A program made the translations under genes and the position numbers. The notes under the pieces were generated by a model that was not told where the DNA came from, made no database searches, and saw only the letters and a list, made by a program, of their open reading frames with translations. From the NCBI RefSeq assembly GCF_046105845.1, contig NZ_CP151004.1: a stretch of 64,000 nucleotides of DNA. One strand, written 5' to 3'. The DNA is from Escherichia coli. GTDB taxonomy: Bacteria; Pseudomonadota; Gammaproteobacteria; Enterobacterales; Enterobacteriaceae. Positions 8,999 to 52,404 of this stretch are shown here, one piece after another (the first letter of the stretch is position 1; each line of letters opens with the position of its first letter).

Positions 8999-9099
8999 GT
9001 CGCCTCTGAAAACTCATCCATTTTGCCCATTCTGGACTAATCATTGTCATTCTCTACAAATTCTGTAGCGTTAATTTTTCTCTGGGGTGAAAATTATTA

Positions 9100-9271
9100 C
9101 GTCGGAGTTTGGTAGATTTTAGTTTGTATAGAGTTATTTTAAATATTTACCTTTTCAATCAATGGATTAAGTGCTCTTTAACATAATAGATGTGTTGTTT
9201 GTGTGATACTGTAAAGTTGGTAGATTGTGACTGGCTTAAAAAATCATTAATTAATAATAGGTTATGTTTAG
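9100..9271 (+). promoter_or_regulatory. CRISPR leader (AT-rich) of orphan array
   Basis: AT-rich tract ending ...TTATGTTTAGA immediately 5' of first repeat; same TTTAGA junction as the cas-adjacent leader; 5' boundary approximate. Confidence 0.6.
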
Positions 9272-10643
9272 AGAGTTCCCCGCGCCAGCGGGGATAAACC
9301 GTTGTCCTGCTGAACCAAGTAAGCCACTGACAAGAGTTCCCCGCGCCAGCGGGGATAAACCGCATTATATCCTGTGCGTCGTTCATTTATTTACGAGTTC
9401 CCCGCGCCAGCGGGGATAAACCGGCCGCCGCATGGCAAAACAAACATCGGGGTACGAGTTCCCCGCGCCAGCGGGGATAAACCGGAACGGCGGCTATACG
9501 GATTCGACAGGTCAGCGAGTTCCCCGCGCCAGCGGGGATAAACCGGATTGAATGCAGATGGTTCAATGCTCGCATTCGAGTTCCCCGCGCCAGCGGGGAT
9601 AAACCGCCACGCGTGCTTTGAGTGGATGGTGTCGCTTGGAGTTCCCCGCGCCAGCGGGGATAAACCGATACATTATTAAGCGGGCAATTTTTCCAGTTTG
9701 AGTTCCCCGCGCCAGCGGGGATAAACCGAACGGCACGGCCTGCCGCCACGTCCCGCAGCTGAGTTCCCCGCGCCAGCGGGGATAAACCGGGGCCGTGTTT
9801 TCTAACGGATTCGCACATTGCGAGTTCCCCGCGCCAGCGGGGATAAACCGCAGCAGTTCAATACTGAAATCAACATGCCGATGAGTTCCCCGCGCCAGCG
9901 GGGATAAACCGCGCGGTGGGGTTTCATTCGCATCAATTCAAGGGAGTTCCCCGCGCCAGCGGGGATAAACCGGCGGTGAGTGAGAAAATCAGGACGGCTG
10001 CGAGGAGTTCCCCGCGCCAGCGGGGATAAACCGCGCCAAATATGCTGGTGGACTTCTACGCCGATGAGTTCCCCGCGCCAGCGGGGATAAACCGCTATCG
10101 ACGGTCAAGAAAATCCACCGGAAGAAGAGTTCCCCGCGCCAGCGGGGATAAACCGGCAGCAATATATTTGACATAATAGATAACCCGGAGTTCCCCGCGC
10201 CAGCGGGGATAAACCGACGCCAGGGGAGATATAACGCGCCTGTTATGGGAGTTCCCCGCGCCAGCGGGGATAAACCGGTCTTAACTAAAAGATGACCATT
10301 CAGTCGCAGGAGTTCCCCGCGCCAGCGGGGATAAACCGCGGCCCATAATATTAATATAATCCACATGAGGGAGTTCCCCGCGCCAGCGGGGATAAACCGC
10401 GCCGGAAATCATCGTTCTGTAATTGTCTAGCGAGTTCCCCGCGCCAGCGGGGATAAACCGCCCTGTTTGTTATTCCCATTATACGTATAAGAGAGTTCCC
10501 CGCGCCAGCGGGGATAAACCGCTTCTGGCTGGAGGTGGAGAAACGGAGGCAATGAGTTCCCCGCGTTAGCGGGGATAAACCGGATTTAGAGAGCCAGACG
10601 TTGGTCAGTTATTCGAGTTCCCCGCGTCAGCGGGGATAACCAT
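9272..10643 (+). CRISPR. orphan type I-E CRISPR array, 23 repeats / 22 spacers
   Basis: 29-bp repeat GAGTTCCCCGCGCCAGCGGGGATAAACCG at 61-bp period (first interval 62); last two repeats degenerate (GCGTTAGCGGGG; GCGTCAGCGGGGATAACCAT); no cas genes adjacent. Confidence 0.97.
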
Positions 10644-26538: not shown

Positions 26539-26840
26539 GCGAGCAGCATTCCTGATTTTAAACGTGAACGCCGCTGGAAGAATCAACAGGTATATAATGG
26601 TGTCGGGTGCTTGAGGCTGTCTGGCGTTAAGCATTCGCGAGGTTCCAGATGGACAAAAGCCCCAGGCGATATTTCTATCAACCTGAGGCCAGCGTTCGAA
26701 CCCAAACAATTCGAATGTTAGTCTCTTCTTTGCAGGGAGGCAAGACATGTGTATATCACTGTAATTCGATATTTATGAGCAGCATCGAAAAATAGTCCAC
26801 TGATATCATCGATAATACTAAAAAAACAGGGAGGCTATTA

Positions 26841-29507
26841 ATGGAACCTTTTAAATATATATGTCATTACTGGGGGAAATCCTCAAAAAGCCTGACGAAA
26901 GGAAATGATATTCATCTGTTGATTTATCATTGCCTGGATGTTGCAGCTGTTGCAGATTGCTGGTGGGATCAATCAGTCGTACTACAAAATGCTTTTTGCC
27001 GAAATGAAATGCTATCAAAACAGAAGGTGAAAGCCTGGCTGTTATTTTTCATTGCCCTTCATGATATCGGAAAGTTTGATATACGATTCCAATATAAATC
27101 AGCAGAAAGTTGGCTGAAATTAAATCCTGCAACGCCATCACTTAATGGTCCATCAACACAAATGTGCCGTAAATTTAATCATGGTGCAGCCGGTCTGTAT
27201 TGGTTTAACCAGGATTCACTTTCAGAGCAATCTCCCGGGGATTTTTTCAGTTTTTTTGATGCCGCTCCTCATCCTTATGAGTCCTGGTTTCCATGGGTAG
27301 AGGCCGTTACAGGACATCATGGTTTTATATTACATTCCCAGGATCAAGATAAGTCGCGTTGGGAAATGCCAGCTTCTCTGGCATCTTATGCTGCGCAAGA
27401 TAAACAGGCTCGTGAGGAGTGGATATCTGTACTCGAAGCATTATTTTTAACGCCAGCTGGGTTATCTATAAACGATATACCACCTGATTGTTCATCACTG
27501 TTAGCAGGTTTTTGCTCGCTTGCTGACTGGTTAGGTTCCTGGACCACAACGGATACCTTTCTATTCAAAGAAGATGCACCTTCAGGCATACAAGCGCTAA
27601 GAACATATTTTCAGTATAGACAACAGGATGCGTGTCGGGTACTGGAGTTGAGTGGCCTTGTATCAAATAAGCGTAGTTATGACGGCGTACATGCCTTACT
27701 GGACAATGGCTATCAACCAAGACAATTACAGGTGTTGGTTGATGCTCTTCCTACAGCTCCCGGGCTGACGGTGATTGAGGCACCTACGGGATCAGGTAAA
27801 ACCGAAACAGCGCTGGCCTATGCCTGGAAACTTATTGACCAACAACTTGCGGAGAGTGTTATTTTTGCCCTCCCTACACAAGCTACTGCAAATGCAATGC
27901 TCAGTAGAATGGAAGCGAACGCGAGCCGTTTATTTACCTCCCCAAATCTTATTCTTGCTCATGGTAATTCACGTTTTAACCACCTTTTTCAATCAATAAA
28001 ATCACGCGCATTTACTGAGCAGGGGCAAGAAGAAGCATGGGTTCAGTGTTGCCAATGGTTGTCACAAAGTAATAAGAAAGTGTTTCTAGGGCAAATAGGC
28101 GTTTGCACGATTGATCAGGTATTGATATCGGTATTGCCAGTTAAACATCGCTTTATCCGTGGTTTGGGAATTGGTCGAAGTATTTTAATTGTTGATGAAG
28201 TTCATGCTTACGACACGTATATGAACGGCTTGCTGGAGGCTGTGCTCAAGGCTCAGGCTGATGTGGGAGGGAGTGTTATTCTTCTTTCCGCAACTCTACC
28301 AATGAAACAAAAACAGAAACTTCTGGATACTTATGGTCTGCATACAGATCCAGAGGAAAATAACTCCGCATATCCACTCATTAACTGGCGAGGTGTGAAT
28401 GGTGCACAACGTTTTGATCTGTTAGCTCATCCAGAACAACTCCCGCCCCGCTTTTCGATTCGGCCAGAACCTATTTATTTAGCTGACATGTTACCTGACC
28501 TTAGGATGTTAGAGCGAATGATCGCAGCGGCAAATGCGGGTGCACAAGTCTGTCTTATCTGCAATTTGGTTGATGTTGCACAACTATGCCACCAACGGTT
28601 AAAGGAACTAAATAACACGCAAGTAGATATAGATTTGTTTCATGCGCGCTTTACGCTGAACGATCGTCGTGAAAAAGAGAATCGAGTTATTAGCAATTTC
28701 GGCAAAAATGGGAAGCGAAATGTTGGACGGATACTTGTCGCCACCCAGGTCGTGGAACAATCACTCGACGTTGATTTTGATTGGTTAATTACTCAGCATT
28801 GCCCCGCAGATTTACTTTTCCAACGATTGGGCCGTTTACATCGCCATCATCGCAAATATCGTCCCGCTGGTTTTGAGGTTCCTCTTGCCACCGTTTTGCT
28901 GCCTGATGGCGAAGGTTACGGACGACATGAGCATATTTATAGCAACGTTAGAGTCATGTGGCGGACGCAGCAACATATTGAGGAACTTAATGGAGCATCC
29001 TTATTTTTCCCCGATGCCTACCGGCAATGGCTGGATAGCATTTACGATGATGCTGAAATGGATGAGCCAGAATGGGTCATCAAAGGCATGGATAAGTTTG
29101 AAAGCGCTGAGTGTGAAAAGAGGTTCAAGGCTCGCAAGGTTCTGCAGTGGGCTGAAGAATATAGCTTGCAGGATAACGATGAAACAATTCTTGCGGTAAC
29201 GAGGGATGGGGAAATGAGCCTGCCATTATTGCCTTATTTACAAACGTCTTCAGGTAAACAACTGCTCGATGGCCAGGTCTACGAGGACCTAAGTCATGAA
29301 CAGCAGTATGAGGCGTTAGCACTTAATCGCGTCAATGTACCCTTCACCTGGAAACGTAATTTTTCTGAAGTAGTAGATGAAGATGGGTTACTTTGGCTGG
29401 AAGGGAAACAGAATCAGAATGGATGGATCTGGCAGGGTAATAATATTGTTATTACCTACACTCGGGATGAAGGGATGACCAGAGTCATCCCTGCAAATCC
29501 CAAATAA
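26841..29507 (+). CDS. cas3: Cas3 nuclease-helicase (type I-E)
   Basis: 888-aa ORF; N-terminal HD domain (HxxxxD, IALHDIGK), DEAD/DEAH helicase motifs (GSGKTE, DEVH). Confidence 0.95.
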   Translation: MEPFKYICHYWGKSSKSLTKGNDIHLLIYHCLDVAAVADCWWDQSVVLQNAFCRNEMLSKQKVKAWLLFFIALHDIGKFDIRFQYKSAESWLKLNPATPSLNGPSTQMCRKFNHGAAGLYWFNQDSLSEQSPGDFFSFFDAAPHPYESWFPWVEAVTGHHGFILHSQDQDKSRWEMPASLASYAAQDKQAREEWISVLEALFLTPAGLSINDIPPDCSSLLAGFCSLADWLGSWTTTDTFLFKEDAPSGIQALRTYFQYRQQDACRVLELSGLVSNKRSYDGVHALLDNGYQPRQLQVLVDALPTAPGLTVIEAPTGSGKTETALAYAWKLIDQQLAESVIFALPTQATANAMLSRMEANASRLFTSPNLILAHGNSRFNHLFQSIKSRAFTEQGQEEAWVQCCQWLSQSNKKVFLGQIGVCTIDQVLISVLPVKHRFIRGLGIGRSILIVDEVHAYDTYMNGLLEAVLKAQADVGGSVILLSATLPMKQKQKLLDTYGLHTDPEENNSAYPLINWRGVNGAQRFDLLAHPEQLPPRFSIRPEPIYLADMLPDLRMLERMIAAANAGAQVCLICNLVDVAQLCHQRLKELNNTQVDIDLFHARFTLNDRREKENRVISNFGKNGKRNVGRILVATQVVEQSLDVDFDWLITQHCPADLLFQRLGRLHRHHRKYRPAGFEVPLATVLLPDGEGYGRHEHIYSNVRVMWRTQQHIEELNGASLFFPDAYRQWLDSIYDDAEMDEPEWVIKGMDKFESAECEKRFKARKVLQWAEEYSLQDNDETILAVTRDGEMSLPLLPYLQTSSGKQLLDGQVYEDLSHEQQYEALALNRVNVPFTWKRNFSEVVDEDGLLWLEGKQNQNGWIWQGNNIVITYTRDEGMTRVIPANPK

Positions 29508-29921
29508 CTTCGGGAATGATTGGTATCAATGACGATAACAAGACCAATAACGGTTTATCCCTACTTAAGTAGGGAAGGTGCACAATGTACATCTTCTTTT
29601 AATTTCCCGGTATGAGATTTTATATTCACAGTATGAATATTTTATGTAATAAAATTCATGGTGATTATTATAACTAAAAATTTCTTTGATAATAAAACGA
29701 ATAACTTGCAGATTTGAAATGCATGCATTATTGTCTTTAAACAATTCAACACATCTTAATATATGCATAGGTTAATTGTATTAAACCAATGGATATATTT
29801 TTGCAGTGAATGTGATTATTGAATTAATTACGCCGTATTTTTTCTTTGTTTTTACCGATAACGGAAGTGTGCCGACGTATAGAAATGCAGGAGAAATGTC
29901 GGAGCATATGAAGGAGAACAA
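29508..29921 (+). promoter_or_regulatory. AT-rich intergenic region upstream of cse1 (Cascade operon promoter region)
   Basis: 414-bp strongly AT-rich tract between cas3 and cse1; in K-12 the corresponding region holds the H-NS-repressed, LeuO-activated Pcas promoter. Confidence 0.55.
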
Positions 29922-31430
29922 ATGAATTTGCTTATTGATAACTGGATCCCTGTACGCCCGCGAAACGGGGGGAAAGTCCAAATCATAAATCTGCAATCGC
30001 TATACTGCAGTAGAGATCAGTGGCGATTAAGTTTGCCCCGTGACGATATGGAACTGGCCGCTTTAGCACTGCTGGTTTGCATTGGGCAAATTATCGCCCC
30101 GGCAAAAGATGACGTTGAATTTCGACATCGCATAATGAATCCGCTCACTGAAGATGAGTTTCAACAACTCATCGCGCCGTGGATAGATATGTTCTACCTT
30201 AATCACGCAGAACATCCCTTTATGCAGACCAAAGGTGTCAAAGCAAATGATGTGACTCCAATGGAAAAACTGTTGGCTGGGGTAAGCGGCGCGACGAATT
30301 GTGCATTTGTCAATCAACCGGGGCAGGGTGAAGCATTATGTGGTGGATGCACTGCGATTGCGTTATTCAACCAGGCGAATCAGGCACCTGGTTTTGGTGG
30401 TGGCTTTAAAAGCGGTTTACGTGGAGGAACACCTATAACCACCTTCGTATGTGGGATCGATCTTCGCTCGACGGTGTTACTCAATGTCCTCACAATACCT
30501 CGTCTTCAAAAACAATTTCCCAATGAATCAAATACGGAAAACCAACCTACCTGGATTAAGCCTGTCAAGCCCAATGAATCTGTGCCAGCTTCGTCAATTG
30601 GGTTTGTCCGTGGCTTATTCTGGCAACCAGCGCATATTGAATTATGCGATCCCATTGGGATTGGTAAATGTTCTTGCTGTGGACAGGAAAGCAATTTGCG
30701 TTATACAGGTTTTCTTAAGGAAAAATTTACCTTTACAGTTAATGGGCTATGGCCCCATCCGCATTCCCCTTGTCTGGTAACAGTCAAGAAAGGGGAGGTT
30801 GAGGAAAAATTTCTTGCTTTCACCACCTCCGCACCATCATGGACACAAATCAGCCGAGTTGTGGTAGATAAGATTATTCAAAATGAAAATGGAAATCGCG
30901 TGGCGGCGGTTGTGAATCAATTCAGAAATATTGCGCCGCAAAGTCCTCTTGAATTGATTATGGGGGGATATCGTAATAATCAAGCATCTATTCTTGAACG
31001 GCGTCATGATGTGTTGATGTTTAATCAGGGGTGGCAACAATACGGCAATGTGATAAACGAAATAGTGACTGTTGGTTTGGGATATAAAACAGCCTTACGC
31101 AAGGCGTTATATACCTTTGCAGAAGGGTTTAAAAATAAAGACTTCAAAGGGGCCGGAGTCTCTGTTCATGAGACTGCAGAAAGGCATTTCTATCGACAGA
31201 GTGAATTATTAATTCCCGATGTACTGGCGAATATTAATTTTTCCCAAGCTGATGAGGTAATAGCTGATCTACGAGACAAACTTCATCAATTGTGTGAAAT
31301 GCTATTTAATCAATCTGTAGCTCCCTATGCACATCATCCTAAATTAATAAGCACATTAGCGCTTGCCCGCGCCACGCTATACAAACATTTACGGGAGTTA
31401 AAACCGCAAGGAGGGTCATCAAATGGCTGA
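29922..31430 (+). CDS. casA: Cascade large subunit Cse1/CasA
   Basis: 502-aa ORF MNLLIDNWIPVRPRNGGKVQIINLQSL... Confidence 0.93.
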   Translation: MNLLIDNWIPVRPRNGGKVQIINLQSLYCSRDQWRLSLPRDDMELAALALLVCIGQIIAPAKDDVEFRHRIMNPLTEDEFQQLIAPWIDMFYLNHAEHPFMQTKGVKANDVTPMEKLLAGVSGATNCAFVNQPGQGEALCGGCTAIALFNQANQAPGFGGGFKSGLRGGTPITTFVCGIDLRSTVLLNVLTIPRLQKQFPNESNTENQPTWIKPVKPNESVPASSIGFVRGLFWQPAHIELCDPIGIGKCSCCGQESNLRYTGFLKEKFTFTVNGLWPHPHSPCLVTVKKGEVEEKFLAFTTSAPSWTQISRVVVDKIIQNENGNRVAAVVNQFRNIAPQSPLELIMGGYRNNQASILERRHDVLMFNQGWQQYGNVINEIVTVGLGYKTALRKALYTFAEGFKNKDFKGAGVSVHETAERHFYRQSELLIPDVLANINFSQADEVIADLRDKLHQLCEMLFNQSVAPYAHHPKLISTLALARATLYKHLRELKPQGGSSNG

Positions 31431-31905
31431 TGAAATTGATGCAATAGCTTTATATCGAGCCTGGCAACAACTGGATAATGGAGCATGTGCGCAAATTAGA
31501 CGTGTTTCAGAACCTGATGAATTACGCGATATCCCTGCGTTTTATAGGCTGGTGCAACCTTTTGGTTGGGAAAACCCACGTCACCAGCAGGCTCTTTTGC
31601 GCATGGTGTTTTGCCTGAGCGCAGGAAAGAATGTCATCCGACATCAGGACAAAAAACCGGAGCAAATAACAGGTATCTCGTTGGGAAGAGCTTTAGCCAA
31701 TAGTGGAAGAATTAACGAGCGCCGTATCTTTCAATTAATTCGGGCTGACAGAACAGCCGATATGGTCCAGTTACGTCGATTACTTACTCACGCCGAACCC
31801 GTACTTGACTGGCCATTAATGGCCAGGATGTTGACCTGGTGGGGAAAGCGCGAACGCCAGCAACTTCTGGAAGATTTTGTATTGACCACAAACAAAAATG
31901 CGTAA
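31423..31905 (+). CDS. casB: Cascade small subunit Cse2/CasB
   Basis: 160-aa ORF, 8-nt overlap with cse1. Confidence 0.9.
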   Translation: MADEIDAIALYRAWQQLDNGACAQIRRVSEPDELRDIPAFYRLVQPFGWENPRHQQALLRMVFCLSAGKNVIRHQDKKPEQITGISLGRALANSGRINERRIFQLIRADRTADMVQLRRLLTHAEPVLDWPLMARMLTWWGKRERQQLLEDFVLTTNKNA

Positions 31906-31917
31906 GGAAACCTTTCT

Positions 31918-33009
31918 ATGTCTAACTTTATCAATATTCATGTTCTGATCTCTCACAGCCCTTCATGTCTGAACCGCGACGATATGAACATGCAGAAAGA
32001 CGCTATTTTCGGCGGGAAAAGACGAGTAAGAATTTCAAGTCAAAGCCTTAAACGTGCGATGCGTAAAAGTGATTATTACGCACAAAATATTGGTGAATCC
32101 AGTCTCAGAACAATTCATCTTGCACAATTACGTGATGTTCTTCGGCAAAAACTTGGTGAACGTTTTGACCAAAAAATCATCGATAAGACATTAGCGCTGC
32201 TCTCCGGTAAATTAGTTGATGAAGCCGAAAAGATTTCTGCCGATGCGGTTACTCCATGGGTTGTGGGAGAAATAGCCTGGTTCTGTGAGCAGGTTGCAAA
32301 AGCAGAGGCTGATAATCTGGATGATAAAAAGCTGCTCAAAGTTCTTAAGGAAGATATTGCCGCCATACGTGTGAATTTACAGCAGGGTGTTGATATTGCG
32401 CTTAGTGGAAGAATGGCAACCAGCGGCATGATGAGTGAGTTGGGAAAAGTTGATGGTGCAATGTCCATTGCGCATGCGATCACTACTCATCAGGTTGATT
32501 CTGATATTGACTGGTTCACCGCTGTAGATGATTTACAGGAACAAGGTTCTGCACATCTGGGAACTCAGGAATTTTCATCGGGTGTTTTTTATCGTTATGC
32601 CAACATTAACCTCGCTCAACTTCAGGAAAATTTAGGTGGAGCCTCCAGGGAGCAGGCTCTGGAAATTGCAACCCATGTTGTTCATATGCTGGCAACAGAG
32701 GTCCCTGGAGCAAAACAGCGTACTTATGCCGCTTTTAACCCTGCGGATATGGTAATGGTTAATTTCTCCGATATGCCACTTTCTATGGCAAATGCTTTTG
32801 AAAAAGCGGTTAAAGCGAAAGATGGCTTTTTGCAACCGTCTATACAGGCGTTTAATCAATATTGGGATCGCGTTGCCAATGGATATGGTCTGAACGGAGC
32901 AGCTGCGCAATTCAGCTTATCTGATGTAGACCCAATTACTGCTCAAGTTAAACAAATGCCTACTTTAGAACAGTTAAAATCCTGGGTTCGTAATAATGGC
33001 GAGGCGTGA
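31918..33009 (+). CDS. casC: Cascade backbone Cas7/CasC
   Basis: 363-aa [52 protein letters not shown]... Confidence 0.93.
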
Positions 33010-33011
33010 AC

Positions 33012-33686
33012 ATGAGATCTTATTTGATCTTGCGGCTTGCTGGGCCAATGCAAGCCTGGGGGCAGCCGACCTTTGAAGGAACGCGACCTACCAGAAGATT
33101 TCCGACCCGAAGCGGGTTATTAGGGCTACTCGGGGCTTGTCTTGGGATCCAACGTGATGATACTTCTTCATTACAGGCGTTATCAGAGAGTGTGCAATTT
33201 GCAGTGCGCTGCGATGAACTCATTCTTGACGATCGTCGTGTGTCTGTAACGGGGTTGCGTGATTACCATACAGTCCTTGGAGCGCGAGAAGATTACCGTG
33301 GTTTGAAAAGTCATGAAACGATTCAAACATGGCGCGAATATTTATGTGATGCCTCCTTTACCGTCGCTCTCTGGTTAACACCCCATGCAACGATGGTTAT
33401 CTCAGAACTTGAAAAAGCAGTATTAAAGCCTCGGTATACACCCTACCTGGGGCGAAGAAGTTGCCCACTAACACACCCGCTTTTTTTGGGGACATGTCAG
33501 GCATCGGATCCTCAGAAGGCGCTATTAAATTATGAGCCCGTTGGCGGCGATATTTATAGTGAGGAATCAGTTACAGGGCATCATTTAAAATTTACGGCGC
33601 GCGACGAACCGATGATCACCTTACCTCGACAATTTGCTTCCCGAGAATGGTATGTGATTAAAGGAGGTATGGATGTATCTCAGTAA
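33012..33686 (+). CDS. casD: Cascade Cas5/CasD
   Basis: 224 aa from MRSYLILRLAGPMQAWGQPTFEG... Confidence 0.9.
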   Translation: MRSYLILRLAGPMQAWGQPTFEGTRPTRRFPTRSGLLGLLGACLGIQRDDTSSLQALSESVQFAVRCDELILDDRRVSVTGLRDYHTVLGAREDYRGLKSHETIQTWREYLCDASFTVALWLTPHATMVISELEKAVLKPRYTPYLGRRSCPLTHPLFLGTCQASDPQKALLNYEPVGGDIYSEESVTGHHLKFTARDEPMITLPRQFASREWYVIKGGMDVSQ

Positions 33687-34272
33687 AGTCATCATTGCCA
33701 GGGCCTGGAGCAGGGATCTTTACCAACTTCACCAGGGATTATGGCATTTATTTCCAAACAGACCGGATGCTGCTCGTGATTTTCTTTTTCATGTTGAGAA
33801 GCGAAACACACCAGAAGGCTGTCATGTTTTATTGCAGTCAGCGCAAATACCTGTTTCAACTGCCGTTGCGACAGTCATTAAAACTAAACAGGTTGAATTT
33901 CAACTTCAGGTTGGTGTTCCACTCTATTTTCGGCTTCGGGCAAATCCGATCAAAACTATTCTCGACAATCAAAAGCGCCTGGACAGTAAAGGGAATATTA
34001 AACGCTGTCGGGTTCCGTTAATAAAAGAAGCAGAACAAATCGCGTGGTTGCAACGTAAATTGGGCAATGCGGCGCGCGTTGAAGATGTGCATCCCATATC
34101 GGAACGGCCACAGTATTTTTCTGGTGATGGTAAAAGTGGAAAGATCCAAACGGTTTGCTTTGAAGGGGTGATCACCATCAACGACGCGCCAGTGTTAATA
34201 GATCTTGTACAGCAAGGTATTGGGCCAGCTAAATCGATGGGATGTGGCTTGCTATCTTTGGCTCCACTGTGA
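33673..34272 (+). CDS. casE: Cas6e/CasE crRNA endoribonuclease
   Basis: 199-aa ORF MYLSKVIIARAWSRDLYQLHQGLWHLF...; overlaps cas5 end. Confidence 0.93.
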   Translation: MYLSKVIIARAWSRDLYQLHQGLWHLFPNRPDAARDFLFHVEKRNTPEGCHVLLQSAQIPVSTAVATVIKTKQVEFQLQVGVPLYFRLRANPIKTILDNQKRLDSKGNIKRCRVPLIKEAEQIAWLQRKLGNAARVEDVHPISERPQYFSGDGKSGKIQTVCFEGVITINDAPVLIDLVQQGIGPAKSMGCGLLSLAPL

Positions 34273-34287
34273 TTGAGGTGTAATAAA

Positions 34288-35491
<1,204 letters not shown>

Positions 35492-35596
35492 AAACAAAGA
35501 ATTAGCTGATCTTTAATAATAAGGAAATGTTACATTAAGGTTGGTGGGTTGTTTTTATGGGAAAAAATGCTTTAAGAACAAATGTATACTTTTAGA
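35492..35596 (+). promoter_or_regulatory. CRISPR leader of cas-adjacent array
   Basis: AT-rich ...ATGCTTTAAGAACAAATGTATACTTTTAGA directly 5' of first repeat. Confidence 0.8.
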
Positions 35597-37089
35597 GAGT
35601 TCCCCGCGCCAGCGGGGATAAACCGTCCGATCCGAAAAAACGGGTAGTCGCCTACGAGAGTTCCCCGCGCCAGCGGGGATAAACCGCCCAGTGGCGAAGG
35701 GCAACGTAAGCATAAAACGAGTTCCCCGCGCCAGCGGGGATAAACCGGGGTAACACCGTGGCAGCAAGTCGATCCGCTGGAGTTCCCCGCGCCAGCGGGG
35801 ATAAACCTGATGCGCGCCGACTTGAATCACTGCGCATGGCGAGTTCCCCGCGCCAGCGGGGATAAACCGATGGACCGTGCCGCTTTTCGCCACCTGACGC
35901 CGAGTTCCCCGCGCCAGCGGGGATAAACCGTGGCTCCGGTCGGGGCCCGCCGCTTGCGGTGGGAGTTCCCCGCGCCAGCGGGGATAAACCGGTGCGTGAA
36001 TTATCTATCCAGGCAAAAGTAACGAGTTCCCCGCGCCAGCGGGGATAAACCGCATATTTTTCAGGATATCTATAAATGGGCGGGGAGTTCCCCGCGCCAG
36101 CGGGGATAAACCGCTCATCAAAATAATCGGCATTGTCAGAAATCCGAGTTCCCCGCGCCAGCGGGGATAAACCGTGCACTGGCTGACTACGCCGCAGCAC
36201 ATAAATGAGTTCCCCGCGCCAGCGGGGATAAACCGATAATTGATGCGATCTGGTCCACTACAGTGGCGAGTTCCCCGCGCCAGCGGGGATAAACCGTAGT
36301 TGCTGTTTAGGCTGTGTTGTGGTTACCAGAGTTCCCCGCGCCAGCGGGGATAAACCGACCTGCTCGCGATGCGTCTGCCGCTGGAACCCGAGTTCCCCGC
36401 GCCAGCGGGGATAAACCGTTGCGCGATCCATCGCTCAGCTTTGATCATGAGAGTTCCCCGCGCCAGCGGGGATAAACCGCGCAGCGCCGACGAACTGGAC
36501 GGCGCTATAAAGAGTTCCCCGCGCCAGCGGGGATAAACCGATGTGGCAGAAATTGATGGAGCGGATGTGCGAGAGTTCCCCGCGCCAGCGGGGATAAACC
36601 GATTTAGATACGGCACACAGGAATGCGCTGGATGAGTTCCCCGCGCCAGCGGGGATAAACCGCGGCTGGCTGTAATAATGCACGGCAGTGTGACGAGTTC
36701 CCCGCGCCAGCGGGGATAAACCGTGAATAATAAGGCGCTGACGGGCGATATTACGGAGTTCCCCGCGCCAGCGGGGATAAACCGGAACAACCTGAACGGA
36801 TGCCACCTTTTCACCTGAGTTCCCCGCGCCAGCGGGGATAAACCAACCGTCAGCATAGACCCATCTAGTCAGATTCTGTGTTCCCCGCGCCAGCGGGGAT
36901 AAACCGGCCCATTCCCCCCATACCGGCGGCAAGTTTAAGTGTTCCCCGCGCCAGCGGGGATAAACCGATTCCGTCAAATTTATCACTCAACGCCAGTTCG
37001 TGTTCCCCGCGCCAGCGGGGATAAACCGGGCGCACTGGATGCGATGATGGATATCACTTAGAATTCCCCGCCCCTGCGGTAGAACTCGC
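35597..37089 (+). CRISPR. type I-E CRISPR array, 25 repeats / 24 spacers
   Basis: 29-bp repeat GAGTTCCCCGCGCCAGCGGGGATAAACCG at strict 61-bp period; last three full repeats begin GTGTTCCCC; terminal repeat degenerate (GAATTCCCCGCCCCTGCGGTAGAACTCGC). Confidence 0.98.
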
Positions 37090-45977: not shown

Positions 45978-47117
45978 ATGAGCGCGGGAAGCCCAAAATT
46001 CACCGTTCGCCGCATTGCGGCTTTGTCACTGGTTTCGCTATGGCTGGCAGGCTGTTCTGACACTTCAAATCCACCGGCCCCGGTAAGCTCCGTTAATGGC
46101 AATGCGCCTGCAAATACCAATTCTGGTATGTTGATTACGCCGCCGCCGAAAATGGGGACGACGTCTACAGCTCAGCAACCGCAAATTCAGCCGGTACAGC
46201 AGCCACAAATTCAGGCAACTCAACAACCGCAAATCCAGCCGGTGCAGCCAGTAGCTCAGCAGCCGGTACAGATGGAAAACGGACGCATCGTCTACAACCG
46301 TCAGTATGGGAACATTCCGAAAGGCAGTTATAGCGGCAGTACCTATACCGTGAAAAAAGGCGACACACTTTTCTATATCGCCTGGATTACTGGCAACGAT
46401 TTCCGTGACCTTGCTCAGCGCAACAATATTCAGGCACCATACGCGCTGAACGTCGGTCAGACCTTACAGGTGGGTAATGCTTCCGGTACGCCAATCACTG
46501 GCGGAAATGCCATTACCCAGGCCGACGCAGCAGAGCAAGGAGTTGTGATCAAGCCTGCACAAAATTCCACCGTTGCTGTTGCGTCGCAACCGACAATTAC
46601 GTATTCTGAGTCTTCGGGTGAACAGAGTGCTAACAAAATGTTGCCGAACAACAAGCCAACTGCGACCACGGTCACAGCGCCTGTAACGGTACCAACAGCA
46701 AGCACAACCGAGCCGACTGTCAGCAGTACATCAACCAGTACGCCTATCTCCACCTGGCGTTGGCCGACTGAGGGCAAAGTGATCGAAACCTTTGGCGCTT
46801 CTGAGGGGGGCAACAAGGGGATTGATATCGCAGGCAGCAAAGGACAGGCAATTATCGCGACCGCAGATGGCCGCGTTGTTTATGCCGGTAACGCGCTGCG
46901 CGGCTACGGTAATCTGATTATCATCAAACATAATGATGATTACCTGAGTGCCTACGCCCATAACGACACAATGCTGGTCCGGGAACAACAAGAAGTGAAG
47001 GCGGGGCAAAAAATAGCAACCATGGGTAGCACCGGAACCAGTTCAACACGCTTGCATTTTGAAATTCGTTACAAGGGGAAATCCGTAAACCCGCTGCGTT
47101 ATTTGCCGCAGCGATAA
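45978..47117 (+). CDS. nlpD: lipoprotein NlpD (LysM + M23 peptidase-like)
   Basis: 379-aa ORF with lipobox (LAGCS), QQPQIQ tandem repeats, LysM and C-terminal M23 domain; in K-12 the main rpoS promoter lies inside this gene (not verified here). Confidence 0.93.
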
Positions 47118-47179
47118 ATCGGCGGAACCAGGCTTTTGCTTGAATGTTCCGTCAAGGGATCACGGGTAGGAGCCACCTT

Positions 47180-48172
47180 ATGAGTCAGAATACGCTGAAA
47201 GTTCATGATTTAAATGAAGATGCGGAATTTGATGAGAACGGAGTTGAGGTTTTTGACGAAAAGGCCTTAGTAGAAGAGGAACCCAGTGATAACGATTTGG
47301 CCGAAGAGGAACTGTTATCGCAGGGAGCCACACAGCGTGTGTTGGACGCGACTCAGCTTTACCTTGGTGAGATTGGTTATTCACCACTGTTAACGGCCGA
47401 AGAAGAAGTTTATTTTGCGCGTCGCGCACTGCGTGGAGATGTTGCCTCCCGCCGCCGGATGATCGAGAGTAACTTGCGTCTGGTGGTAAAAATTGCCCGC
47501 CGTTATGGCAATCGTGGTCTGGCGTTGCTGGACCTGATCGAAGAGGGCAACCTGGGGCTGATCCGCGCGGTAGAGAAGTTTGACCCGGAACGTGGTTTCC
47601 GCTTCTCAACATACGCAACCTGGTGGATTCGCCAGACGATCGAACGGGCGATTATGAACCAAACCCGTACTATTCGTTTGCCGATTCACATCGTAAAGGA
47701 GCTGAACGTTTACCTGCGAACCGCACGCGAGTTGTCCCATAAACTGGACCACGAACCAAGTGCGGAAGAGATCGCAGAGCAACTGGATAAGCCAGTTGAT
47801 GACGTCAGCCGTATGCTTCGTCTTAACGAGCGCATTACCTCGGTAGACACCCCGCTGGGTGGTGATTCCGAAAAAGCGTTGCTGGACATCCTGGCCGATG
47901 AAAAAGAGAACGGTCCGGAAGATACCACGCAAGATGACGATATGAAGCAGAGCATCGTCAAATGGCTGTTCGAGCTGAACGCCAAACAGCGTGAAGTACT
48001 GGCACGTCGATTCGGTTTGCTGGGGTACGAAGCGGCAACACTGGAAGATGTAGGTCGTGAAATTGGCCTCACCCGTGAACGTGTTCGCCAGATTCAGGTT
48101 GAAGGCCTGCGCCGTTTGCGCGAAATCCTGCAAACGCAGGGGCTGAATATCGAAGCGCTGTTCCGCGAGTAA
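47180..48172 (+). CDS. rpoS: RNA polymerase sigma factor sigma-S
   Basis: 330 aa from [14 protein letters not shown]...; sigma-70 family regions 2-4. Confidence 0.96.
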
Positions 48173-48187
48173 GTAAGCATCTGTCAG

Positions 48188-48226
48188 AAAGGCCAGTCTC
48201 AAGCGAGGCTGGCCTTTTTCTTTTGT
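48188..48226 (+). terminator. intrinsic terminator after rpoS
   Basis: AAAGGCCAGTCTC-AAGC-GAGGCTGGCCTTTTTCTTTTG hairpin plus T-run. Confidence 0.65.
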
Positions 48227-48292
48227 TTGGGAAGTCGGTGTGTTTTGTCGCCTGGATAAGACTCGTCAGCGTCCTACCCGGCAATCAGCATC

Positions 48293-48637
48293 CTATTTGC
48301 TCATCATCTTGCGCACCAACTGCATAAACAGCTCCTTCTCTTCTGCACTCAAACGCCCCAAAAATTCCTCATCCACACTGTCACCAATCGGTATCGCCGC
48401 AGCAAGTACCTTTTCTCCTTCGGCAGTCAGCCAGACAAAGCGACGCCGCTTGTCAGCGGCGTCATGTTCACGTCTGACTAAGCCACGATTTTCCATTCTT
48501 GCCAACATTTCTGCCAGCGTTGCTTTGGTGCTGACTGCTGCTTCTATCAGTGCCACCTGTTCGATACCAGGCTTATCAGCAATGGCGCGCATCACCGCGT
48601 ACTGTGGTTTGGTCAGGTCAGGTAACTCGACCCCGGC
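48293..48637 (-). pseudogene. 5'-truncated MarR/SlyA-family regulator remnant
   Basis: Frame encodes ...LPDLTKPQYAVMRAIADKPGIEQVALIEAAV...RMENRGLVRR... (winged-helix MarR core) but is closed by an in-frame TGA at 48638-48640; about 25 N-terminal residues and any promoter missing. Confidence 0.55.
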
Positions 48638-48793
48638 TCAAGCCCGGCCGGGATCACCGACAAGCTGATTATCGACGCCACCACGCCTGTCGCCCCGGAC
48701 AACCGTGGTCACTACAGCCAGCCCGTGGTGGATTTGCCGGAAACCAAAGCCTGGGCTGAAAAACTGACCGCTATGCTGGCCGCACGTAAATAA
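48626..48793 (+). pseudogene. 3' remnant of a UbiD-family decarboxylase gene
   Basis: 55 in-frame codons (...GITDKLIIDATTPVAPDNRGHYSQPVVDLPETKAWAEKLTAMLAARK*) preceded by an in-frame TAA and no start; sits 10 nt upstream of the 78-aa subunit-D-like ORF. Confidence 0.45.
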
Positions 48794-48803
48794 GGAGAAC
48801 AAG

Positions 48804-49040
48804 ATGATTTGTCCACGTTGTGCCGATGAACAGATTGAAGTGATGGCGAAATCGCCGGTAAAAGATGTCTGGACGGTCTACCAGTGCCAGCATTGCCTCT
48901 ATACCTGGCGCGATACCGAACCGCTACGCCGCACCAGCCGCGAACATTATCCCGAAGCGTTCCGCATGACGCAGAAAGATATTGATGACGCGCCGATGGT
49001 GCCGAGCATCCCGCCGCTGCTGGCGGCAGATAAGCGTTAA
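48804..49040 (+). CDS. small zinc-ribbon protein resembling subunit D of UbiD-type phenolic acid decarboxylases (orphaned)
   Basis: 78-aa ORF MICPRCADEQIEVMAKSPVKDVWTVYQCQHCLYTWRD... with CxxC...CxxC; RBS AAGGAG 7 nt upstream. Confidence 0.55.
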   Translation: MICPRCADEQIEVMAKSPVKDVWTVYQCQHCLYTWRDTEPLRRTSREHYPEAFRMTQKDIDDAPMVPSIPPLLAADKR

Positions 49041-49080
49041 TAAAAAGTGCCGGGTAGTGGCTTTGCTTTACCCGGCCTCA

Positions 49081-49737
49081 TTACTTTATTTTATAAAATG
49101 ACAGCCGCCCGCTTTTCGGCGATCCGGTATCAATATAAATCTGGTTAGCGAACGTCTGAATGTTATCAAACATCATATGTCCAAATATAAAATAATCAGC
49201 GCCGTTTATTTGTTGTAACTCGCCATTAAGCGATTTCTGCACACGATCAACAGGCCAGAGTAGTTCTCTCTCCGCTATTTCTTTGTCAAAGAGATATTCA
49301 TTCCCCGGATAATCTGCATGTGCGATGACATATTTTATTATGTCGTTAGTGATTTCAATAATATGTGGAAGGCGATGAAATTTCAGCAACAGATTTATTG
49401 CTTCTTGTTGTTCCGTCTCATTTAATTCAAAGAACCAGTCGCCGCCGCTGGCAAGCCACATATTTCCATCGCCAGTTTCGAATGCATCAAGCGCCATCGC
49501 TTCATGGTTGCCTTTAACCGACGTAAACCAGGGTTGGTTTAGCAGGTGCAGCACGTTAAGACTCTCCGGCCCACGATCAATATTATCGCCGACAGAAATA
49601 AGTAAGTCGGTTTCAGGGCAAAAAGAGAGTTGATGTAAGCGGGATTGTAATAATTGATAGTCACCATGAATATCACCAACGGCCCATATATGGCGATAGT
49701 GATGGGTATTGATTTTTTGATAGCGTGTAGATGGCAT
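49081..49737 (-). CDS. pphB: serine/threonine protein phosphatase 2
   Basis: 218-aa ORF with metallophosphatase motifs (GDIHG, GDNIDRG, GNHE). Confidence 0.88.
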   Translation of the reverse strand: MPSTRYQKINTHHYRHIWAVGDIHGDYQLLQSRLHQLSFCPETDLLISVGDNIDRGPESLNVLHLLNQPWFTSVKGNHEAMALDAFETGDGNMWLASGGDWFFELNETEQQEAINLLLKFHRLPHIIEITNDIIKYVIAHADYPGNEYLFDKEIAERELLWPVDRVQKSLNGELQQINGADYFIFGHMMFDNIQTFANQIYIDTGSPKSGRLSFYKIK

Positions 49738-49842
49738 GGTTTTACCCTGTAAAATAAGCTTTCCTATTATACAGGGTATTTTTATTTGATTCGTCAGTTG
49801 TCGTTAATATTCCCGATAGCAAAAGACTATCGGGAATTGTTA

Positions 49843-52404
49843 TTACACCAGACTCTTCAACCGATAAATCCACTCCAGCGCCTGACGCGGAGTCAGTGAA
49901 TCCGGGTCGAGGTTTTCCAGTGCCTCGACCGCAGGCGAAGTTTCTTCTGGTACGGGCAGCAAAGACATTTGCGTACCATCCACTTGCGTAGCGGCGGCGT
50001 TCGGCGAAATGCTTTCCAGCTCACGCAGTTTTTGCCGTGCGCGCTTAATCACCTCTTTTGGCACGCCCGCCAGAGCAGCAACCGCCAGGCCGTAGCTTTT
50101 GCTCGCCGCGCCATCCTGCACGCTATGCATAAAGGCAATGGTGTCGCCGTGCTCCAGTGCATCGAGATGCACGTTGGCGACGCCTTCCATTTTCTCCGGT
50201 AACTGGGTCAGCTCGAAATAGTGGGTAGCAAACAGCGTCAATGCCTTAATCTTATTCGCCAGATTTTCTGCGCACGCCCACGCCAGCGACAGACCATCGT
50301 AAGTGGACGTTCCACGCCCGATCTCATCCATTAACACCAGACTGTATTCGGTGGCGTTATGTAAAATATTGGCGGTTTCAGTCATCTCCACCATAAAGGT
50401 TGAGCGCCCGGAAGCCAGGTCATCTGCCGCGCCTACGCGGGTAAAGATGCGATCGATAGGTCCAATCTCGACTTTTTGTGCCGGTACATAGCTGCCGATG
50501 TAGGCCATCAGCGCAATCAGTGCGGTCTGGCGCATATAGGTACTTTTACCGCCCATATTCGGACCGGTAATGATCAACATGCGACGCTGCGGCGACAGGT
50601 TCAGCGGGTTGGCGATAAATGGCTCGTTCAGTACCTGTTCAACCACCGGATGGCGGCCTTCGGTGATGCGAATACCCGGTTTATCAATGAAGGTCGGGCA
50701 GGTGTAGTTCAGCGTATAGGCCCGTTCCGCCAGGTTCACCAGCACGTCGAGTTCCGCCAGCGCGCTCGCGCTCTGTTGCAACGCTTCCAGATGCGGCAAC
50801 AGCAGGTCGAACAACTCTTCATAAAGCTGTTTTTCCAGTGCTAGTGCTTTGCCTTTTGAAGTGAGAACTTTGTCTTCGTACTCTTTTAGCTCTGGAATAA
50901 TGTAGCGCTCGGCGTTTTTCAGCGTCTGGCGACGCATGTAATTGATGGGTGCCAGATGGCTTTGTCCACGGCTGATCTGAATGTAATAACCATGAACCGC
51001 GTTAAAGCCGACTTTCAGCGTGTCCAGGCCAGTACGTTCACGCTCGCGGACTTCCAGACGCTCCAGATAATCGGTCGCGCCGTCAGCCAGCGCGCGCCAC
51101 TCATCCAGCTCTTCGTTATAGCCCGATGCGATAACACCACCGTCGCGTACCAGCACTGGCGGTGTGTCGATGATTGCTCGCTCCAGCAGATCGCGCAGCT
51201 CGGCAAACTCGCCCATCTTCTCACGTAGCGCCTGTACCGGAGCGCTATCGACAGTTTCTAACTGCGCACGCAGCTCCGGCAGTTGCTGGAAAGCGTGACG
51301 CATACGGGCCAGATCGCGTGGGCGAGCAGTTCGTAAAGCCAGACGCGCCAGAATACGTTCCAGGTCGCCGACCTGACGCAGTACCGGCTGCAGCTCGGCG
51401 GTGAAATCCTGCAATGCGCCAATAGTTTGCTGGCGCTCAAGCAACACGCGGGTATCGCGCACTGGCATATGCAGCCAGCGTTTCAGCATACGACTACCCA
51501 TCGGCGTTACAGTGCAGTCGAGCACTGAAGCCAGCGTGTTTTCCGCACCGCCCGCCAGGTTCTGAGTAATTTCCAGGTTACGACGTGTCGCGGCATCCAT
51601 AATGATGCTGTCCTGCTCACGTTCCATGGTGATAGAACGAATATGTGGCAGGGTCGTACGTTGGGTATCTTTCGCATACTGCAACAGACAACCGGCAGCA
51701 CAAAGTCCGCGCGGCGCGTTCTCGACGCCAAAACCGACCAGATCGCGGGTGCCAAATTGCAGATTCAACTGCTGGCGCGCGGTGTCGATTTCAAACTCCC
51801 ACAGCGGGCGACGGCGCAGGCCGCGACGGCCTTCAATTAACGACATTTCAGCAAAATCTTCTGCATACAGCAGTTCCGCAGGATTAGTGCGTTGCAGTTC
51901 TGCCGCCATCGTTTCCCGGTCAGCCGGTTCGCTCAGGCGAAAACGACCGGAACTGATATCCAGCGTCGCGTAGCCGAAACCTTTGCTGTCCTGCCAGATA
52001 GCCGCCAGCAGGTTGTCCTGACGCTCCTGCAACAGGGCTTCATCGCTGATGGTGCCTGGCGTAACGATACGCACAACTTTGCGCTCAACCGGACCTTTGC
52101 TGGTCGCCGGATCGCCAATTTGTTCGCAGATGGCAACGGACTCGCCCTGATTCACCAGTTTGGCGAGGTAGTTTTCCACCGCATGGTAGGGAATCCCCGC
52201 CATCGGGATCGGCTCTCCCGCCGAAGCACCGCGTTTGGTCAGTGAAATATCCAGCAGTTGCGATGCGCGTTTTGCGTCGTCATAAAACAGTTCATAAAAA
52301 TCACCCATCCGGTAAAACAGCAGGATCTCGGGATGCTGGGCTTTCAGCTTGAGATACTGCTGCATCATGGGCGTATGGGCGTCGAAATTTTCTATTGCAC
52401 TCAT
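49843..52404 (-). CDS. mutS: DNA mismatch repair protein MutS
   Basis: 853-aa [43 protein letters not shown]...; Walker [10 protein letters not shown]. Confidence 0.97.

Follow-up and report, generated by a model that had tools for sequence, protein, structure and literature searches.

The locus between cysH and iap on Escherichia coli contig NZ_CP151004.1 raises two questions: whether it holds a complete and ordinary type I-E CRISPR-Cas (CRISPR, short palindromic repeats that are clustered and regularly interspaced; Cas, CRISPR-associated) system, and whether its spacers point to use of that system in nature. We examined a 64-kb stretch of the contig, here called the window, for which a preliminary description made from the DNA letters had proposed a canonical type I-E locus at 26841-37089. 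The locus almost certainly represents a complete, genetically intact type I-E adaptive immune system, a variant of that of E. coli K-12 with two arrays and a predicted function. The readable part of its spacer record consists entirely of plasmids and phage-plasmids.

Integrity and subtype of the cas locus

Eight cas open reading frames (ORFs) lie on the plus strand at 26841-35491 in the order cas3, casA, casB, casC, casD, casE, cas1 and cas2, after trimming to the K-12 start codons. The locus is flanked by cysJ-cysI-cysH on the left and by iap (minus strand), followed by cysD-cysN, on the right. The components of the system are listed below with model scores and with differences from K-12 in amino acids (aa) or nucleotides.

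26841..29507, plus strand: cas3 (HD nuclease and superfamily 2 helicase), 888 aa; NCBIfam NF007248 1601 bits (cut-off 569); PADLOC Cas3e; 38 aa substitutions
29508..29921, no strand assigned: cas3-casA intergenic region, 414 nt as in K-12; 8 differences; 32.8% G+C
29922..31430, plus strand: cse1/casA/cas8e, the Cascade large subunit (PAM reader), 502 aa; NF007247 904 bits (cut-off 576); TIGR02547 534 bits; PADLOC Cas8e; 9 aa differences
31423..31905, plus strand: cse2/casB/cas11e, the Cascade small subunit, 160 aa; TIGR02548 57.3 bits (cut-off 28.5); PADLOC Cas11e; 4 aa differences
31918..33009, plus strand: cas7e/casC, the Cascade backbone, 363 aa; TIGR01869 427 bits (cut-off 178); 3 aa differences
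33012..33686, plus strand: cas5e/casD, 224 aa; TIGR01868 290 bits (cut-off 69); 1 aa difference
33673..34272, plus strand: cas6e/casE, the endoribonuclease for the CRISPR RNA (crRNA) precursor, pre-crRNA, 199 aa; TIGR01907 266 bits (cut-off 45); His20 present; 3 aa differences
34288..35205, plus strand: cas1e, the integrase, 305 aa; TIGR03638 378 bits (cut-off 216); E141, H208, D218 and D221 present; 3 aa differences
35207..35491, plus strand: cas2e, 94 aa; TIGR01873 141 bits (cut-off 33); 4 aa differences
35492..35596, plus strand: CRISPR1 leader, 105/105 nt identical to K-12 MG1655
35597..37089, plus strand: CRISPR1 array, 24 spacers of 32 nt with 25 repeats, of which the last is degenerate
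9073..9272, plus strand: CRISPR2 leader, AT-rich, its end ...GTTATGTTTAGA abutting the first repeat; the 5' boundary is approximate
9273..10643, plus strand: CRISPR2 array, located between queE and ygcE; 22 spacers with 23 repeats, of which the final two are degenerate

None of the eight genes differs in length from its K-12 MG1655 counterpart, and all start with ATG in both; re-translation found no frameshift, no premature stop and no internal stop codon. The distance from the cas3 start to the cas2 stop is 8651 nt in the window and in K-12 MG1655; the operons are collinear and no gene has therefore been inserted. The view that the locus between cysH and iap is complete, with intact frames of K-12 length and no extra genes, is thereby confirmed for all eight genes. 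The proposed extent holds for the cas operon and CRISPR1, and it leaves out CRISPR2 (9273-10643), which belongs to the same system.

The subtype was examined with hidden Markov models. All eight Cas proteins score above the curated NCBIfam cut-offs for type I-E, and the models of other subtypes remain far below theirs. The top PADLOC model is of subtype e for seven of the eight; for Cas2 the generic Cas2 model narrowly comes first and Cas2e second. Both type I-E signature subunits, Cse1/Cas8e and Cse2/Cas11e, are present (NCBIfam, PADLOC), and the Cascade genes follow in the order cas7-cas5-cas6e, then cas1e-cas2e, with order and overlaps as in K-12. Cas3 is a single chain, matched by NF007248 over residues 1-882, by an HD domain model over 27-233 and by the helicase core over 309-715. 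It carries the HD (74-75), GSGKT and DEVH motifs; these, together with Cas1 E141/H208/D218/D221 and CasE H20, are established catalytic residues of the K-12 proteins.

A different subtype, or a degenerate or chimeric system that merely resembles type I-E, might be suspected from the distribution of differences along the operon. Nucleotide divergence from K-12 is 5.1% in cas3, 4.2% in cas2, 2.3% in cas1, 1.7% in casA, about 0.7% in casB-casE and 0% in the leader, and this unevenness suggests that the operon is a mosaic made by recombination within the pool of K-12-type alleles. The mosaic nevertheless stays inside that pool, as the best-matching E. coli genomes are 99.0% identical to the whole 8.76-kb cas region. 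Moreover, every Cas protein is full-length and scores highest on its type I-E model in NCBIfam, with PADLOC concurring apart from the narrow lead of generic Cas2, and the NCBIfam models of other subtypes fall far short of their cut-offs. The NCBIfam typing, the stop-free re-translation and PADLOC refute a non-I-E or degenerate locus, and we give this alternative a negligible probability. The earlier assessment of a well-described system that is not novel agrees with the 99.0% identity and with the typing of all proteins as I-E.

Two arrays with one repeat family

CRISPR1 keeps a strict 61-nt period, with 24 good repeats of 29 nt and a degenerate terminal repeat at 37061. The same period, made up of a palindromic 29-nt repeat and a 32-nt spacer, runs through both arrays, which together hold 46 distinct spacers (24 in CRISPR1 and 22 in CRISPR2). 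The window contains the repeat core 47 times; none of 100 shuffles contains it. The repeat can form a 7-bp hairpin of -15.1 kcal/mol (z = -3.6), and none of 200 shuffles folds as well. The repeats have no Rfam match at the gathering score; the only Rfam match was a sok element.

CRISPR2 occupies the position typical of this array in E. coli, which in K-12 is next to ygcE. No cas genes lie adjacent to CRISPR2, which is 16 kb upstream of the cas operon and must use the operon at 26841-35491. Over 200 nt the CRISPR2 leader is about 92% identical to its counterpart in E. coli AHB5, in which the homologous position is annotated as CRISPR. Minus-strand ORFs of 112-183 aa that run across the arrays (35555-36986 and 9387-10366) are artefacts of the repeats; in metagenome contig L016 a gene caller had placed such minus-strand ORFs inside the array, and these have no Pfam hit.

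Spacer targets and flanking motif

To the proposal that all spacers be compared with phage and plasmid collections and with the host, the first part gave an answer for 10 of the 46 spacers, which match mobile elements with 0-4 mismatches; the remaining 36 have no match in the phage and plasmid collections. Self-targets were searched for within the 64-kb window: no spacer of either array matches it outside the arrays, with up to 7 mismatches allowed. The matches are listed below with the three bases next to the protospacer (spacers of CRISPR1 and CRISPR2 are designated C1 and C2).

C1-1: 3' end of P7-type parB in an IncY (P1/P7-like) phage-plasmid; 0 mismatches; AAG
C1-6: non-coding, about 370 bp downstream of IncFII/FIC repA; 0 mismatches; AAG
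C1-9: large SLT-transglycosylase gene of a P1-like (IncY) plasmid; 0 mismatches; AAG
C1-10: upf57.5 (major-head gene 23 region of P1) in an IncY phage-plasmid; 0 mismatches; AAG
C1-21: phage-plasmid-like phage PhiR41_1; 2 mismatches; ATG
C2-8: traI of F-like plasmids; 0 mismatches; AAG
C2-10: IncHI1B/IncP plasmid; 2 mismatches; AAG
C2-16: MOBF/MPF_T conjugative plasmid from Klebsiella; 0 mismatches; AAG
C2-17: beside repB of an IncHI1A plasmid; 0 mismatches; AAG
C2-22: traD of F-like plasmids; 4 mismatches; AAG

In nine of the ten matches the protospacer is immediately preceded by AAG on its 5' side, read on the spacer-sense strand, and in the tenth by ATG (binomial P = 5e-16 for chance AAG). 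The matched protospacers thus carry the protospacer adjacent motif (PAM) of type I-E, 5'-AAG (AWG). The final base is T in repeat 4 and A in repeat 21 instead of G, as expected if the last repeat base is copied from the flank of the protospacer. The five matched CRISPR2 spacers all point to conjugative plasmids and all have AAG. CRISPR2 spacers gave no matches in the phage collection, and exact 28-mers of C1-2, of C2-1 and of an extra spacer found in contig L016 (n11) gave none in IMG/VR.

Thousands of plasmid records (at least 5000) carry the C1-6 sequence, in a region that we take to contain the IncFII replication origin. A plasmid match of 48-50 nt that seemed to run across spacers 6 and 7 proved to be the perfect match of spacer 6 with a chance extension. 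The targets of C1-1 and C1-10 are 604 bp apart on one strand in P7. In a complete P1-like plasmid, the targets of C1-9 and C1-10 are 16.5 kb apart on opposite strands and that of C1-1 is absent. As spacing and strands differ between P7 and this plasmid, we make no claim of primed adaptation from the three CRISPR1 spacers that hit P1-like elements.

The same targets bear on whether the locus might be kept mainly for a role outside defence, such as Cas1 in DNA repair or chromosome segregation or crRNA regulation of host genes, with the spacers being incidental. Non-defence roles have been proposed for E. coli Cas1, and nothing in the window supports such a role here. Every target that could be identified lies on a plasmid or phage-plasmid and has the correct PAM, and the lack of spacer matches in the window outside the arrays also argues against such a role. 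A maintenance mainly for non-defence purposes is very improbable.

Lineage and array turnover

The preliminary description had also attributed the length of the array to a different strain with a strain-specific spacer record. This claim is well supported by comparison with 5,426 complete RefSeq E. coli genomes, in whose arrays 23 of the 24 CRISPR1 spacers are absent; the exception is the leader-distal C1-24, which K-12 carries at 31/32 nt. At most two CRISPR1 spacer sequences are common to the window and any complete genome, and the other single matches are protospacers on plasmids. The 46-spacer set is a lineage fingerprint absent from these genomes and useful for typing.

The flanking genes also place the window in a rarely sampled lineage. 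Among the complete genomes, cysJIH reaches at best 98.2% identity, the right 25 kb 98.7% and the left 24 kb 96.5-96.7%; CRISPR2 depresses this left-hand value. No genome of this set reaches 99% to the flanking core genes (flanks 1-26480 and 37110-62000), although the cas operon reaches 99.0%. Searches with YgcE, YqcE and Iap retrieved proteins common to thousands of unrelated E. coli, and no lineage-specific comparison of CRISPR2 was obtained from them.

Close relatives were found through Cas3, which is identical on 18 public contigs from draft assemblies, metagenomes or SRA. Several of these are 99.99-100% identical to the window over 10-19 kb. The lineage was encountered only in material of this kind; besides that of L013, its assemblies include GCA_018015415.1, GCA_026124145.1 and GCA_052981255.1. 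In L013 (GCA_044249515.1), 18755 of 18756 nt upstream of the array are identical, and the array lacks spacer 13. Metagenome contig L016, which has the Cas3 of the window, carries spacers 1-22 in the same order plus one extra spacer at the leader end. The arrays of L014 and L036 have only spacers 12 and 20-24 in common with the window, with ten other spacers between them. Within C1-22 (36907-36938), spacer position 5 is A in the window and G in L013, L014 and L016; the A reads as a point mutation inside the spacer, private to the clone of the window.

The related arrays are most simply read as having a core at the trailer end to which spacers were added in a polarised manner, with an internal spacer lost now and then. 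The spacer differences between near-clonal relatives suggest, indirectly, that adaptation occasionally occurs in nature.

Regulation and predicted mechanism

Both regulatory gaps resemble those of K-12. The cysH-cas3 gap has the K-12 length of 358 nt with 8 differences, and it and the 414-nt cas3-casA gap are each about 98% identical to K-12. In K-12, the cas3-casA region contains the H-NS-silenced Pcas promoter and the divergent anti-Pcas promoter, and the CRISPR1 leader contains the array promoter and an IHF site. Silencing of Pcas and the leader promoters by H-NS, with LeuO as antisilencer, is a trait of the K-12-type variant. The positions of these promoters in the window were assigned by identity to K-12. 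Given the conservation of the leader and of the AT-rich regulatory region, expression is probably repressed by H-NS under standard conditions, as in K-12; silencing of the E. coli system by H-NS is treated in the literature (PMC10910852). Exact searches of the GTDB species-representative collection with the leader-repeat junction and spacer C1-23 gave no match, and for the junction this indicates that the K-12-type leader is not among these representatives.

Anatomy, subtype, PAM and targets were established for the window itself. From near-identity to the K-12 system we infer Cascade/Cas3 interference, IHF-guided integration and H-NS silencing. Leader promoters would transcribe both arrays into pre-crRNA, and Cas6e would process this by cutting behind the hairpin of every repeat, which would yield crRNAs of 61 nt. 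Cascade, composed of Cse1, Cse2, Cas7, Cas5 and Cas6e, would carry the crRNA, read a 5'-AAG-type PAM, form an R-loop on matching DNA and recruit Cas3, which would nick and degrade the target. In adaptation, Cas1-Cas2 would insert new 33-bp fragments at the leader-proximal repeat, whereby the last base of the PAM would become the last base of the repeat.

Is the system used in nature?

We tentatively propose that the system may be active in nature in a rarely sampled lineage, with recent spacers directed at P1/P7-like phage-plasmids in circulation and at conjugative plasmids of the IncF and IncHI groups, so that it would form an anti-plasmid barrier and not a silent relic. This proposal is based on the newest CRISPR1 spacer, which is perfect and AAG-flanked, on the extra leader-end spacer of a relative, and on the finding that all identifiable targets are plasmids.

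Several observations weigh against the main account, that of an intact system which occasionally adapts. Targets could be identified for only 10 of the 46 spacers, and consensus scans for promoters and terminators in the Pcas region and leader performed no better than shuffles. The flanks of L016 have 85 mismatches in 11.6 kb compared with the window, so this relative is no strict clone, and its extra spacer could equally mean that the clone of the window lost its first spacer. Furthermore, C1-12 (36297-36328) is shared exactly with L014 and L036 despite unshared neighbours on both sides. Simple polarised growth would not produce such sharing, which requires that arrays recombined or that the spacer was acquired independently.

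A system that is intact in sequence and yet switched off by H-NS in all natural conditions would have ancient, frozen arrays, and the differences between relatives would be due only to deletion or recombination between repeats. Such a relic would be consistent with a regulatory region and leader that are essentially the same as in K-12, whose system H-NS represses, and with the 36 of 46 spacers that have no counterpart in the phage and plasmid collections. L013 differs from the window by a loss, that of spacer 13, which is what a relic predicts. The literature also favours a relic in noting that natural isolates have yielded no demonstration of activity and that an array may remain stable over millennia (PMC10910852). 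On the other hand, seven spacers, including the newest of CRISPR1, are perfect 32/32 AAG-flanked matches to present-day plasmids, which argues against great age. The extra spacer of L016 sits exactly at the leader end, and purifying selection is implied by the eight genes, which are all intact and keep their catalytic residues. We consider a permanently silent relic unlikely.

The bias of the readable spacers toward plasmids and phage-plasmids and the one-spacer differences among near-clonal relatives bear on the wider issue of whether the H-NS-silenced E. coli system ever works in the wild, to which the data only hint at an answer.

Other features of the window

An intact mazE-mazF toxin-antitoxin pair lies at 2339-2922, downstream of relA as in other E. 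coli. A comparison of synteny with annotated E. coli genomes showed no further defence-like module, and it was fair to call the CRISPR-Cas locus the main defence system of the window. The rpoS-mutS gap (about 47000-50000) has the short form of a polymorphic region and is collinear with strain VCSW5; several other close matches have about 8 kb more in this gap, with hydroxyarylic acid decarboxylase genes and ygbN.

Comparison with known systems

The iap-cysH site is variable in E. coli. Loci retrieved with the Iap protein show three states: K-12-type cas genes, an alternative type I-E variant, and no cas genes with the arrangement iap-hok-cysH. The window has the K-12-type cas state. At least 80% of its cas region is covered at one place in 1,114 of the 5,426 complete genomes, nearly all at 95-99% identity.

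In cas-less E. coli (L034, L037 and L038) the flanking genes are as in the window, whereas the cas genes and CRISPR1 are wholly lost and an intact 50-aa hok lies between iap and cysH. The hok/sok element of these strains corresponds to the sok match of the window (Rfam RF01794, 103.7 bits), located at 26605-26761 in the cysH-cas3 gap and about 98% identical to the sokX region of K-12. No Hok-type ORF was identified in the cysH-cas3 gap of the window, where short ORFs were listed without comparison to Hok.

The alternative type I-E variant (L031 and L032) has the subtype, locus, repeat family and anchor spacer beside iap in common with the window. It differs in protein lengths, with 97, 307, 216 and 248 aa for Cas2, Cas1, CasE and CasD compared with the K-12-type lengths of 94, 305, 199 and 224 aa in the window, whose DNA is 99.0% identical to that of K-12-type loci. 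The cas region of the window was matched by megablast in only 1,222 of the 5,426 genomes, which indicates that the alternative variant is too divergent to belong to its allele class.

The closest known system is that of K-12 MG1655. The eight genes, their order, lengths and overlaps and the intergenic lengths are all the same, the 105-nt leader and the 29-nt repeat are identical, both loci sit at the cysH-iap site of the chromosome, and they have the oldest spacer in common at 31/32 nt. The differences are 65 amino-acid substitutions in the Cas proteins overall, 38 of them in Cas3, and flanking core genes that are only about 96.7% identical. As had been supposed, the array is longer than in K-12, with 24 CRISPR1 spacers against 13; in this comparison, which covered CRISPR1, the oldest spacer is the only one in common. 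The locus has little importance beyond annotation: among type I CRISPR-Cas systems it is an allele, at 99% identity, of the one studied best. The spacer set is new and strain-specific; the system itself is already known, and the locus in no way departs from it.

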